A DNA stretch of 64,000 nucleotides, from sequence record PZ445527.1; one strand, given 5' to 3'. The stretch comes from a phage. Under the pieces are notes generated by a model. It did not search any database. It was not told where the DNA came from and worked only from the letters and a program-made list of their open reading frames with translations. This document shows, in pieces, positions 2,379 to 23,098 of the stretch. Every line of letters begins with the position of its first letter. Position 1 is the stretch's first letter. The position numbers and the translations under genes are program-made.

Positions 2379-2656
2379 TATTTCTTACCTTTCAGTTGTT
2401 TAACTTCACGCTCAAAGCTAGCTGCACGGCGTTCTGCCACTGCTTGATGCTCCTTAGCAAAGCGTGCCTCTTGTTTTGCTAAGTTAAAGGCCATAGCGTT
2501 CTTGTTAAGAGAATCATACATCTTCTTCATCGCCGGAATAGACATTTTCATCAGTTGCCCCTCAAATCCTTGCATGTCGAGGAGAATTGCTAATACATTG
2601 GCCATTTCAGTCTTGGTAAGGTTAGAGGCGTCGAAGTCTTTAGTCATGTTTTCCAT
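2378..2656 (-). CDS. hypothetical protein (92 aa)
   Basis: Track ORF 2378..2674. The first ATG lies in the conserved promoter leader, so ATG 2656 after GAGAGAGGAAA is the likely start. Confidence 0.55.
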   Translation of the reverse strand: MENMTKDFDASNLTKTEMANVLAILLDMQGFEGQLMKMSIPAMKKMYDSLNKNAMAFNLAKQEARFAKEHQAVAERRAASFEREVKQLKGKK

Positions 2657-2688
2657 TAGAATTTCCTCTCTCATTAATTTATGAACTT

Positions 2689-2717
2689 ATTATACAGAAT
2701 TTTGAGGTTTAAAGCAA
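2689..2717 (-). promoter_or_regulatory. T5-type early sigma70 promoter (TTGCTT-17-TATAAT)
   Basis: Exact hexamers and 17-nt spacer read on the minus strand, followed by the conserved AT-rich leader and RBS. Confidence 0.75.
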
Positions 2718-2734
2718 CTGAATTTTTTAATTAC

Positions 2735-3166
2735 TTACCAATCGTTAACAACACCAGAGAACTCAGAAGCAAAAACTTTCTCAAATTTTTCTGCAATTTC
2801 AGGATGATCCTTACAGATCAACTCAATACATGCTTCTGGAGTCATTCCTTCGTCTTCAGGATCACCATAATACTTGTCCCAAAGATCGTCAGGGATGATG
2901 TGCTCTGCCAAATCTTGGAAAGAGATTAGCTGATAACGTTCTGCTTCCTCAGGGATAAGGATTTCACAAAGATCTTTATCTATATCACTACGGTAATCAG
3001 CAATTAGCAGGGCATTGCAAGCATGACACTCCCAAACCATCAAGCGTTCAGAAATAGAATTAGACTTATCCTGAATGTAGGACTGAAACAGGGTTCGAAA
3101 AGTAGCTTTAACTTGTTCAAACTTATCTGCTGCTGCAAAAACTAGAGCTTTATCAACTTTGTTCAT
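2735..3166 (-). CDS. hypothetical protein (143 aa)
   Basis: First ORF after promoter 3197..3225, with RBS GAGAAGGAAA. Confidence 0.6.
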   Translation of the reverse strand: MNKVDKALVFAAADKFEQVKATFRTLFQSYIQDKSNSISERLMVWECHACNALLIADYRSDIDKDLCEILIPEEAERYQLISFQDLAEHIIPDDLWDKYYGDPEDEGMTPEACIELICKDHPEIAEKFEKVFASEFSGVVNDW

Positions 3167-17940: not shown

Positions 17941-18017
17941 TGGCGCGACTGATGGGATTTGAACCCACATTCCCTCCCGTGATAGGGGAGTACCATTACC
18001 AAGCCAGCCACGGTCGC
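17941..18017 (-). tRNA. tRNA-Asp-type with anticodon AUC (A34)
   Basis: Acceptor GCGACCG/CAGTCGC, CTCCC-CTATCAC-GGGAG, GTGGG-TTCAAAT-CCCAT, encoded CCA. The loop differs from the Asp CTGTCAC loop only at position 34. Confidence 0.7.
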
Positions 18018-18212: not shown

Positions 18213-18314
18213 GCTTGTTTCCTCAGTTATTAATGAAAATGGTATCTGTGGCTGAATTAGATGTCAGCAATGATAGCTGGTTGGCTACCGGTTTACTTAA
18301 CTCTACACAGAATT

Positions 18315-21901: not shown

Positions 21902-21976
21902 TGGCCGAGGTGACAGGATTCGAACCTGCATAAAGGAATTTAGAAGACTCCTGCCTCTCCCTTAGACTACACCCCG
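21902..21976 (-). tRNA. tRNA-Arg(UCU)
   Basis: Acceptor CGGGGTG/CACCTCG, GGAGT-CTTCTAA-ATTCC, GCAGG-TTCGAAT-CCTGT, encoded CCA. Confidence 0.85.
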
Positions 21977-22626
21977 TTTAAGTATTTTTAAGAACTCTCG
22001 TAAAAACTCTTAAAAATACAGACGATACCGGGAGAGTCATAAGTCTCACTCATTAAGTATTTCAAGACAAAATACAGTAACGTCTATTATTTTCCAGTTT
22101 AAGTCAGGGTGACTTAGTGGTTATGTCCTGCGGTATATTGAGGACTCGGTTAGGCTTGGGGTCATGACTTCCCGCCTTTTGCTGCTACTCAACAGGAGTT
22201 ATCGCGAATTACCTGTGCTATTGTGCACCATTAGTGACATCTCTCATGCCAGCATTTCCCACTTTGTGGATAGCTTGAAAAACTACTCCGATACGGAGAA
22301 AGAACTTCACTATCCTAGAATACCTTCTAAAGTTCTTCTTTAGCCTGGACATAGTTAAATCGTAATAAAACTATTCAGCAGACCGGTTGGTTAGTCTGGA
22401 ACCAACTACCGCGTGGTTTAGGCAGTGCGCAACTAACCTCGGAAGCTTTTACGTTAAAAGCACCAGTTATCCAGTTCTTACCGACCGTAGGATTCGAACC
22501 TACATCTTCCACCAGTTACGGCTTGATAATACCAATTATACTAGGACGGCAGTGTTACTACATAAGTGATTTCCACACCCCACTATTTATAAATTAGAAA
22601 AGAATTACTCTCTAATTTATGAATAT

Positions 22627-22655
22627 ATTATACAGAATTTATAAGCATTTAGCAA
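22627..22655 (-). promoter_or_regulatory. T5-type early promoter (TTGCTA-17-TATAAT) driving a 640-nt non-coding transcript and tRNA-Arg
   Basis: Hexamers read directly. The leader has GAGAG but no ORF follows. Confidence 0.75.
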
Positions 22656-22663
22656 ATGAATTT

Positions 22664-23098
22664 TTAGAAAAACTCGCTAGCAATCAAGGCGGCTGTTTTA
22701 CCATCATAACGCCCTGTAAACTCTGCCTTAATAGTTTTCATTAAGAGAGCTTTGGTAATACCTGGGTTTAGCTTAACCAATTCTGCAAAGTATTTACGAA
22801 TTTCAGTTTCAGTTAACTGTTGCAGTGCATAATCATGCTCTAAACGCGCTAAAAGATCTAAGTATTCAGCATCAGGGGTATAGTCAACATTCGATTTTTC
22901 AGCAGCAATCCGTGTATTCTCAATTGCTTTGAATTGTGATTTCAACCAGTTAGTAAACTCCAGCTCAGTTACGCAATCTTTATCAATACGTTGCAGGTCT
23001 CCTAGAACCGTACTTAGATGCTTAACTGATACAGCGTCACCACTTTTGCGAGCAGCTTCAATCAACTCTCGCAGTACATAAAGCATATTCATGCCCAT
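22664..23098 (-). CDS. hypothetical protein (144 aa)
   Basis: TAATG junction with the upstream small ORF. Confidence 0.55.
   Translation of the reverse strand: MGMNMLYVLRELIEAARKSGDAVSVKHLSTVLGDLQRIDKDCVTELEFTNWLKSQFKAIENTRIAAEKSNVDYTPDAEYLDLLARLEHDYALQQLTETEIRKYFAELVKLNPGITKALLMKTIKAEFTGRYDGKTAALIASEFF

Follow-up and report, generated by a model that had tools for sequence, protein, structure and literature searches.

We analyzed a 64,000-nt stretch of phage DNA (sequence record PZ445527.1, hereafter the window) and focused on a region of about 640 nt on its minus strand (positions 21,977 to 22,626) that corresponds to the rnaX locus of phage T5. Twelve minus-strand transfer RNA (tRNA) genes were found by ARAGORN between 15.6 and 22.0 kb, and a megablast search of phage records with the flagged region returned 443 matches, nearly all of them in T5-like phages of Salmonella, Escherichia, Shigella, and Klebsiella. 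Because of this, we assign the window to a Tequintavirus-type phage, of which it represents the tRNA module. In the T5 record (AY734508), the homologous stretch is a misc_RNA feature of 719 nt, "rnaX / RNAX," located after "promoter P16-17" and directly before tRNA-Arg. In the DT57C record, rnaX is a misc_RNA of 636 nt that the annotators labeled "stable RNA with unknown functions." The flagged region aligned to rnaX with 94.3% identity in T5 and 96.1% in DT57C, the two annotated records that we aligned, with 100% coverage in both cases. The genomic position is also the same, with a P16-17-type promoter before and tRNA-Arg directly after the element, which in all three phages is placed between a YqeY-like gene and tRNA-Arg. 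Judged by its sequence and position, the window element is the same gene as T5 rnaX, and we call its product RNAX. Like the DT57C copy, it lacks an 85-nt insertion flanked by direct repeats that is found in T5, and all three copies lack a 5' domain of about 150 nt found inside the leader hairpin of many other Tequintaviruses.

As a locus, rnaX is already known from GenBank annotation in T5 and close relatives; the records that annotate it are AY734508, NC_027356, NC_042564, AJ604531, and KM979355, and the misc_RNA feature is also present in the records of BF23, DT571/2, and Salmonella phage 5. None of the GenBank records gives a structure or a function for RNAX, and a literature search on RNAX, T5 stable RNAs, and structured RNAs of T5-like phages found no paper describing rnaX. 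As an RNA family, RNAX thus appears to be undescribed within reach of our searches, with structure, function, and Rfam entry all absent. RNAX matches were found in 526 phage records. This RNA is present in more than 500 sequenced phages, among which many are candidates for therapeutic or biocontrol use, and most of the records examined leave it unannotated or annotate it wrongly. Indeed, many of them (e.g., our loci L003, at 1190-1327, L005, L006, and L023) show short hypothetical coding sequences across RNAX, some on the opposite strand, and the tRNA-like unit described below is variously labeled tRNA-Sec, tRNA-Ser, tRNA-Pro, tRNA-OTHER, or pseudogene. These coding sequences and tRNA labels drawn over RNAX are probably annotation artefacts.

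The original prediction, made on the letters of the window, described a consensus-like promoter, a GAGAG motif in its leader and no open reading frame (ORF) thereafter, and proposed a promoter-driven, hairpin-dense non-coding unit upstream of tRNA-Arg. Our results support this view. A consensus scan matched the promoter at 10 of 12 positions; it is the homologue of T5 promoter P16-17, it agrees with the T5 consensus quoted in the AKFV33 record, and the homologous site is annotated as a promoter in both the T5 and AKFV33 records. Assuming the layout of the T5 PN25 promoter, transcription probably starts at A22620. The GAGAG motif is part of a transcribed region common to T5 early promoters, of which the same ~60 nt recur at other promoters, and in RNAX it supplies the 5' arm of a leader hairpin (P1). 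Sense-strand ORFs in the flagged region do not exceed 45 amino acids, and none is conserved among 19 representatives with pairwise identities below 97%. Furthermore, the 131 substitutions that separate the window copy from that of phage SE19 are spread evenly over the three codon positions (46/43/42), without 3-nt periodicity, and indels break the frame, with lengths such as 1, 2, 4, 5, and 7. On these three grounds we ruled out the coding hypothesis, and we regard RNAX as non-coding from its sequence.

To describe the fold, we gathered relatives from a phage collection, IMG/VR, and metagenomes, which gave 44 distinct core sequences with 55 to 97% identity. In their alignment, fully identical blocks alternate with helices whose two sides change together, and an all-against-all column scan recovered the best-supported helices without prior assumptions. 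In the 5' domain (alignment A1, 36 sequences), 91.6% of the cells were paired and 15 of the 41 pairs showed double changes, compared to 2 to 4 in a control in which the pairing partner was slid by 1 to 3 columns. Similarly, the 3' domain (A2, 30 sequences) had 93.5% of its cells paired and double changes in 14 of 29 pairs (0 to 4 in the slid control), and a model-based alignment of the 5' domain that included phages not used in training (A4) had 93.1% paired and double changes in 24 of 37 (4 to 9 in the slid control). In each of the three alignments, the proportion of paired cells, the numbers of pairs and of cells changed on both sides, and the covariation score were higher than in any of 500 shuffles; the number of further pair types, counted separately, was attained in 79 of 500 shuffles for A1 and in 1 of 500 for A2. 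Within the 5' domain, the outer and inner quartets of the long helix Pa-Pb occur in five combinations (UAGU/ACUG, UAAC/GUUG, UGAU/AUCA, UAGC/GCUA, and UAAU/AUUA), and an internal loop, AACACU/AAGA, lies between this helix and the tRNA-like unit at its tip.

Many pairs in A1 and A4 are held as G-U, which would be A-C on the opposite strand, and the selected molecule is therefore the minus-strand RNA. Relative to 20 shuffles per strand, the minimum free energy (MFE) z-score was -3.59 (sense) and -2.19 (antisense), so that the sense strand folds better than shuffled sequence and better than its complement; of the two kinds of evidence for the fold, the covariation carries more weight. An element acting at the DNA level, such as an origin, a target of recombination or of homing endonucleases, or an array of protein-binding sites, or else a group of small protein genes, could account for the terminal inverted repeat and the GTCATGAC palindrome, both of which are conserved as sequence, for the endonuclease genes that flank the core, and for the short hypothetical ORFs annotated here in several records. 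However, we consider this extremely improbable, given that pairs are retained through G-U wobbles, that compensatory changes keep the pairing and not the sequence, that there is neither a conserved ORF nor codon periodicity, and that the region can be deleted. RNAX is very probably one large structured RNA. Its predicted fold consists of a leader hairpin, a 5' junction with a tRNA-like module, a variable center, a conserved 3' domain, and a terminal hairpin (Table 1), and the peripheral hairpins belong to this multi-domain fold with its long-range pairings. All six hairpins listed in the original prediction were found at their coordinates, the stem before tRNA-Arg being longer than the 12 pairs first noticed.

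Table 1. Features of the window copy of RNAX and its immediate surroundings, in the order of transcription. A core position p lies at window coordinate 22587 - p.
Feature	Position in window	Strand	Description and basis
Sigma-70 early promoter	22655..22627	minus	TTGCTA (22655-22650), 17-nt spacer, TATAAT (22632-22627)
P1 leader hairpin	22620..22589	minus	AUAAAUUAGAGAG paired with UUUUCUAAUUUAU; 13 pairs (22620-22608 with 22601-22589), 6-nt loop; MFE folds
5' junction domain	22586..22441	minus	Helices Pd, Pa-Pb, and Pc plus invariant GUGG; covariation (A1/A4)
Invariant GUGG	22583-22580	minus	5' junction domain
Helix Pd	22574-22571 with 22444-22441	minus	GGAA/UUCC; CGAA/UUCG in relatives
Helix Pa-Pb	22570-22557 with 22475-22462	minus	12 pairs; tRNA-like unit at tip
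tRNA-like module	22550..22479	minus	7-pair acceptor-like stem, D arm, T arm, 3-pair/6-nt arm; Rfam tRNA match
Hairpin Pc	22461..22445	minus	GCTTTTA-ACG-TAAAAGC; sequence verified
Central region	22438..22255	minus	Pe, Pf, variable hairpins, two invariant strands; alignment
Hairpin Pe	22438-22421	minus	Compensatory GCUG/CAGC versus GCGG/CCGC in relatives
Invariant strand CUAAACCAC	22421-22413	minus	Central region
Hairpin Pf	22406-22386	minus	Central region
Lineage-variable hairpin	22338..22300	minus	AAGAACUU...AAGUUCUU (DNA letters AAGAACTT...AAGTTCTT); sequence verified
Lineage-variable hairpin	22298..22286	minus	CTCCG-TAT-CGGAG; sequence verified
Invariant strand GUGGGAAA	22262-22255	minus	Central region, 5' of the conserved 3' domain
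Conserved 3' domain	22251..22092	minus	Pg, Ph, Pi, Pj, and Pk plus invariant strands; covariation (A2)
Pg	22251-22235	minus	3' domain
Ph	22216..22192	minus	ACAGG-15 nt-CCTGT; sequence verified
Pi	22177-22152	minus	Apical loop AGUCAUGA at 22169-22162
Pj	22145-22125	minus	3' domain
Invariant strand AUAACCAC	22124-22117	minus	Between Pj and Pk
Pk	22115..22101	minus	AAGTCA-CCC-TGACTT; sequence verified
Invariant strand AACUGGAA	22099-22092	minus	3' of Pk
3' tail	22091..21977	minus	Lineage-variable hairpins closed by AGACG/CGUCU (22085-22081 with 22024-22020); MFE fold and alignment
Terminal hairpin	22019..21982	minus	15-17 pairs; sequence verified; MFE fold and alignment
Spacer UUAAA	21981-21977	minus	Abuts tRNA-Arg
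tRNA-Arg(UCU)	21976..21902	minus	Downstream of RNAX; ARAGORN and Rfam

The 5' junction carries the degenerate tRNA-like unit that the original prediction had recognized and described as lacking an anticodon stem. The unit itself was confirmed by a match to the Rfam tRNA model (RF00005) with 35.5 bits, above the gathering threshold of 29, while ARAGORN made no tRNA call on 22550..22479; the absence of an anticodon stem turned out to be only nearly right. At that position, we found a covarying 3-pair stem with a 6-nt loop (GCC-GUAACU-GGU), unlike the anticodon arm of a tRNA with its 5 pairs and 7-nt loop. The acceptor-like stem of 7 pairs, usually with a U-U mismatch at 5:68, the GG of the D loop and the T arm (GUAGG-UUCGAAU-CCUAC) are all conserved, and covariation is seen in A1 and A4, with GUAGG/CCUAC, GUGGG/CCCAC, and GCAGG/CCUGC as T-stem variants. 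Unlike tRNA-Arg and tRNA-Asp of the window, which end in an encoded GCCA, the unit has no encoded CCA; its sequence runs on (GGUCGGU-AAGAAC), and its flanks pair with each other. The arm that replaces the anticodon arm differs between lineages: it is long in Klebsiella phages and missing in EPS7, and in Pectobacterium phage DU_PP_V it has a triloop on a stem of 5 pairs. In EPS7-type phages, an unrelated plain hairpin on the same helix replaces the whole unit; the rest of RNAX is kept, and a model of the 5' domain (model R1) still scores 92 to 94 bits.

One alternative, in line with the "several small RNAs or tRNA remnants" of the original prediction, is that the region is a row of decayed tRNA genes, a precursor from which several independent small RNAs are cut, or both, and has no function as a whole. 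One unit indeed passes the Rfam tRNA threshold, the tRNA module is DNA shuffled by homing endonucleases (an HNH gene in SB9 and hegA in BF23), and T5 has another small tRNA-like RNA, rna3. However, both Rfam and model R1 found only one tRNA-like unit in RNAX, and a covarying helix formed by its own flanks encloses it. Moreover, the covarying helices and invariant strands, some of them long range, lie mostly outside the unit, the other hairpins are part of one conserved fold, and conservation is seen at identities as low as 55% and also in a second subfamily. The relatives, for which ordinary tRNAs or ORFs had been envisaged at this position, have neither real tRNAs nor conserved ORFs there and carry the same structured RNA instead. 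We thus consider a row of remnants distinctly unlikely, and the tRNA-like unit is best read as a module within RNAX, not as a remnant gene.

A tRNA mimic could also serve as a decoy, its elbow soaking up a host defense nuclease that targets tRNAs, or a tRNA-binding enzyme, with the rest of the RNA acting as a stabilizer. The conserved and covarying D-loop GG, T loop, and acceptor-like stem would fit such a role, and so would an upstream gene of the YqeY/GatB-tail family, the domain being a tRNA-binding one in GatB. The anticodon loop, which is where most known tRNA nucleases attack, is absent from the tRNA-like unit, and its substitute arm is highly variable. Furthermore, EPS7-type phages, which are devoid of the unit, keep both the rest of RNAX and the YqeY-like gene, Klebsiella phages keep the unit without the YqeY-like gene upstream of RNAX, and the strongest conservation lies elsewhere in RNAX. 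A decoy therefore seems unlikely to us, even though T5 tRNAs are known to counter a host defense, PARIS (PMC11464382).

Two parts of RNAX are conspicuously constrained in sequence. The apical loop of Pi, GGAGUCAUGACC, did not differ in any of the relatives examined, DU_PP_V and the Pantoea phage among them, while the stem around it covaries (AGGC/GCCU, AGGU/ACCU, and GUGAC/GUCAC). Within this loop, GUCAUGAC is its own reverse complement, and a loop-loop duplex is computed at -12.4 kcal/mol, so that two GUCAUGAC loops could pair with each other. The terminal hairpin (38 to 42 nt; positions 2001-2042 in our locus L111) is 93 to 100% identical between DU_PP_V and T5-like phages across 450 records. 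Such identity would point to a partner that recognizes the sequence, such as a nuclease or some other protein, or else to gene conversion that recurs at a junction prone to endonuclease attack.

Phage DU_PP_V belongs to another subfamily (Mccorquodalevirinae) and has an ORF-free stretch of about 1,000 nt, containing a "pseudo-tRNA," before tRNA-Arg. In blastn against RNAX of T5-like phages, only the terminal hairpin aligned. Nevertheless, model R1, which gave 188 bits on the window, scored 93 bits (E ~1e-23) on DU_PP_V, a phage on which it had not been trained. In this phage, both GUGG motifs are changed, to ACGG and AUGG, and both CCAC motifs have become CCGU; because of this coordinated change, the GUGG and CCAC motifs are taken to be paired strands. 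Likewise, the UUAU/AUAA of the long helix, invariant elsewhere, is replaced by CAC/GUG. A second, shorter model (R2), which covers Pi-Pj-Pk and not the whole 3' domain, gave 128 bits on the window and 48.5 bits on an untrained Pantoea phage; with default filters, it missed DU_PP_V and was weak on Klebsiella phages, which have large insertions. Each model found exactly one strong copy in the 64-kb window.

Wider searches added little to this range. The pattern AGTCATGACC...CATAACCAC retrieved T5-like phages and three chance matches in coding DNA from viral contigs, and of the 49 matches to ACTTATGTNNNAACACTGCC in metagenomes, only about a dozen proved genuine, and these were all T5-like. The pattern GGGGTGNNGAA...AACACTGCC added only Pectobacterium phages among viral contigs; in bacterial genomes it gave 104 matches, and none of the 80 loci returned matched R1, with the exception of one ordinary tRNA. 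A search through the upstream protein yielded only 6 loci. Overall, no relatives outside T5-like phages were recovered by the motif scans, which covered metagenomes, viral contigs, and 185,579 genomes of bacteria and archaea, and RNAX is, as far as these scans reach, found only in this group (Demerecviridae).

We then compared RNAX to known RNA families. An Rfam scan, which had been suggested along with the original prediction, confirmed the tRNA match and gave no other family: both at the gathering threshold and with permissive E-value limits (10 for the window region, 1 for four larger relatives), Rfam 15 returned tRNA alone, apart from weak matches to SpF41, microRNA, and small nucleolar RNA families that lay far below their thresholds and were discarded. 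Because tRNA is all that Rfam returns, RNAX falls outside GOLLD, ROOL, OLE, transfer-messenger RNA (tmRNA), RNase P RNA, and the curated ribozyme families. A tmRNA was also rejected on the absence of both an ARAGORN tmRNA call and an Rfam match. No Rfam family covers RNAX, and the present alignments and models show that one could be built.

The closest parallels are GOLLD and ROOL, which are phage encoded, often near tRNA islands and form oligomers through kissing loops (PMC12286853). GOLLD is a large non-coding RNA of phages and prophages with a conserved 3' and a variable 5' region, sometimes with embedded tRNAs, and its function is unknown; ROOL is an ornate phage RNA of about 0.6 kb near tRNA islands that is abundant yet non-essential (PMC12286853). 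RNAX is similar to GOLLD in being phage encoded, in adjoining tRNA genes, in its conserved 3' and variable 5' parts, and in its many covarying helices. However, the Rfam GOLLD model does not match, motifs and hosts differ (RNAX occurs in phages of Enterobacterales), and GOLLD embeds real tRNAs whereas RNAX embeds a non-decoding tRNA mimic. With ROOL, RNAX shares a size of about 0.6 kb, the proximity to tRNA islands, and the fact that it can be deleted, and it has in addition an invariant self-complementary loop. Again, the Rfam ROOL model gives no match, the folds are unrelated as far as can be seen, and oligomerization of RNAX would be a prediction, the invariant palindromic loop being the one hint at a homo-oligomeric nanocage like those of GOLLD and ROOL. 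RNAX appears to be a new class among the known large phage RNAs tied to tRNA islands.

Two further systems resemble parts of RNAX. Bacterial Y RNAs of the YrlA type also have a tRNA-like domain (acceptor-like stem, D and T arms, and no proper anticodon loop) set in a larger helix, and some of them, with a 7-pair acceptor stem, are cut by RNase P (PMC4201824). RNAX is, however, 4 to 10 times larger, and no Ro60/Rsr gene adjoins it, its neighbors being the YqeY-like gene and a Band-7 gene; Rfam gave no match other than tRNA, the Ro-binding motif itself not being among the motifs searched for. In MALAT1-mascRNA and in polycistronic tRNA precursors, a tRNA cut by RNase P makes the 3' end, as it might in RNAX; RNAX differs in its bacterial-phage setting and in that some relatives have no downstream tRNA.

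Taken together, the reading that we favor, and which we hold to be somewhat more probable than all others combined, is that the window carries a copy of rnaX encoding a single, stable, folded non-coding RNA of about 640 nt that would be released by RNase P, act as a scaffold, and perhaps self-associate. RNAX would be transcribed early by the host RNA polymerase from the P16-17-type promoter, together with tRNA-Arg. As the rnaX annotation in T5 and DT57C runs up to the base directly before tRNA-Arg, the cut of RNase P at the 5' end of this tRNA would release RNAX and set its 3' end. The 5' and 3' hairpins would protect the ends of the molecule, and such protection would explain the "stable RNA" label in GenBank. 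With less certainty, RNAX may act through its folded shape and not through pairing to mRNA, and it may be a scaffold for factors that handle tRNAs or act in translation, which would be held by the tRNA-like elbow and the invariant strands. It might also, probably through the palindromic loop GUCAUGAC, self-associate as GOLLD and ROOL do. Finally, RNAX may be of accessory benefit to the phage without being required on laboratory hosts: rnaX falls within the 8.2-kb st0 deletion of T5, and deletions of the tRNA region are described as non-essential (PMC11464382), which is why we class its function as accessory on these hosts.

The position of RNAX would also be compatible with a long leader, or a cis-acting regulatory or processing element, for tRNA-Arg or the downstream Band-7 gene, since RNAX abuts tRNA-Arg, is probably co-transcribed with it and has its extremely conserved terminal hairpin next to the tRNA. 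This is, nevertheless, very unlikely in our view. Klebsiella and Pantoea phages have no tRNA-Arg after RNAX, a 510-nt ORF separates the hairpin from tRNA-Arg in phages of the SB9 type, and a length of 0.64 to 1.3 kb with an invariant core far exceeds that of known bacterial leaders.

Going further than the scaffold that we favor, RNAX might be a third, independent class of ornate phage RNA beside GOLLD and ROOL, forming a defined homo-oligomer through the invariant GUCAUGAC kissing loop and, by means of the tRNA-like module and the invariant strands, engaging tRNAs or the translation and tRNA-processing machinery in the infected cell. We consider this possible, though doubtful. If true, a third ornate class would sit in T5, a classic and genetically tractable coliphage. 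The role of GOLLD and ROOL is open, and experiments in their native hosts are difficult; RNAX would provide a tractable model in T5-like phages of Escherichia coli and Salmonella, for which deletion mutants such as T5 st0 are already available.

Several points weigh against the reading that we favor. As the sequences compared are related, the shuffle controls overstate significance; the slid controls are fairer and are still clearly exceeded. The GUGG and CCAC motifs can be paired in two ways, either closing the two halves separately or closing the whole core together with its variable center, and both schemes are equally supported. The term "stable RNA" comes from GenBank annotations only. 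A palindromic loop may arise by chance among about a dozen loops, and it can alternatively be a protein site or make an intramolecular contact. The likeness to GOLLD and ROOL is one of architecture only, their Rfam models giving no match. In addition, the tRNA-like module is missing in EPS7-type phages, and it therefore cannot be essential for the core function. Lastly, tRNA-Arg does not come after RNAX in all phages: ORFs take its place in Klebsiella and Pantoea phages, and SB9-type phages have an inserted ORF. Release by RNase P can thus not be universal.

The size of RNAX varies considerably among relatives. From promoter to terminal hairpin, we measured about 645 nt in the window, 727 nt in T5, 854 to 1,111 nt in Epseptimaviruses, and about 1,270 to 1,300 nt in Klebsiella phages. 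The extra length sits within helices that are simple hairpins in the window, and the core islands are unchanged; by this comparison, the window phage has a minimal form of RNAX. Hairpin P1 encloses an extra 5' domain of 150 to 400 nt in many relatives, some of them close; in ECOP18 and BF23, for example, a 149-nt insertion lies exactly at the P1 loop. Similarly, Pe encloses an 80-nt insert in relatives, and an insert of about 110 nt follows AUAACCAC in Klebsiella phages. P1 itself shows compensatory variants, namely, AAAUUGAGAA/UUCUCAAUUU in Pantoea phage AAS21 and a change from AAAUUAGAG/CUCUAAUUU to AAAUUAAAG/CUUUAAUUU in DU_PP_V.

Insertions of a different kind were also seen. In T5 (L001, 839-904), KookSpook, and one metagenomic phage (also L005 and L077), RNAX contains an insertion of about 85 nt that forms a long hairpin between 22-nt direct repeats. 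The repeat duplicates hairpin Pk and AAACUGGAA, and the insertion, which is not found in the window, looks like a small mobile or duplicative one. In 26175IV, Kpn9-P3, and Pantoea phage AAS21 (L019, about 790-870; L022, about 720-790; and L021, about 1010-1080), RNAX contains a conserved module of some 50 nt (AGGACUAGGAUGCUGAUUUGGCUACCCUUACCUGAUAYAUGCCCAAAUC) whose position differs from phage to phage. It resembles a pseudoknot, and its distribution suggests a shuffling of RNA modules across lineages.

The borders of the RNAX core have been entered by homing-endonuclease genes (our loci L008, at 320-799 and 1386-1895; L016, at 1-399; and L009, at 2396-3079). In SB9, an HNH_3 gene lies between promoter and core, and PRF-SP13 has an ORF at the same position. 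In mar003J3, an annotated HNH endonuclease gene ends just before the core. At the other end, SB9 has an unassigned ORF of 169 amino acids between the terminal hairpin and tRNA-Arg, and in both 26175IV and STG2 this is also where an ORF of 510 nt begins. RNAX of the newer BF23 genome is cut short within the tRNA-like unit by hegA (F-TflIV).

Upstream of the promoter, the window encodes a protein of 144 amino acids (22664..23098, minus strand) that belongs to the YqeY/GatB-tail family. This assignment was made only through homologues, 9 of 13 of which match PF09424, as Pfam misses the window copy; the best match of the family profile to a solved structure is Bacillus subtilis YqeY (1NG6). In the records, the gene is labeled "tRNA amidotransferase," "recombination-related exonuclease," or hypothetical. 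A partnership between this protein and the tRNA-like unit was considered and, given their inconsistent co-occurrence, set aside as a weak idea.

Two other features of the tRNA module deserve mention. A 73-nt homologue of T5 rna3, 98.6% identical, lies at 18240..18312 (minus strand), directly downstream of tRNA-Asn; it ends in ACCA, is called by neither ARAGORN nor Rfam, and looks like a degenerate tRNA-like small RNA. Finally, ARAGORN assigned the anticodon AUC (loop CUAUCAC) to tRNA-Asp (17941..18017, minus strand), instead of the usual GUC.

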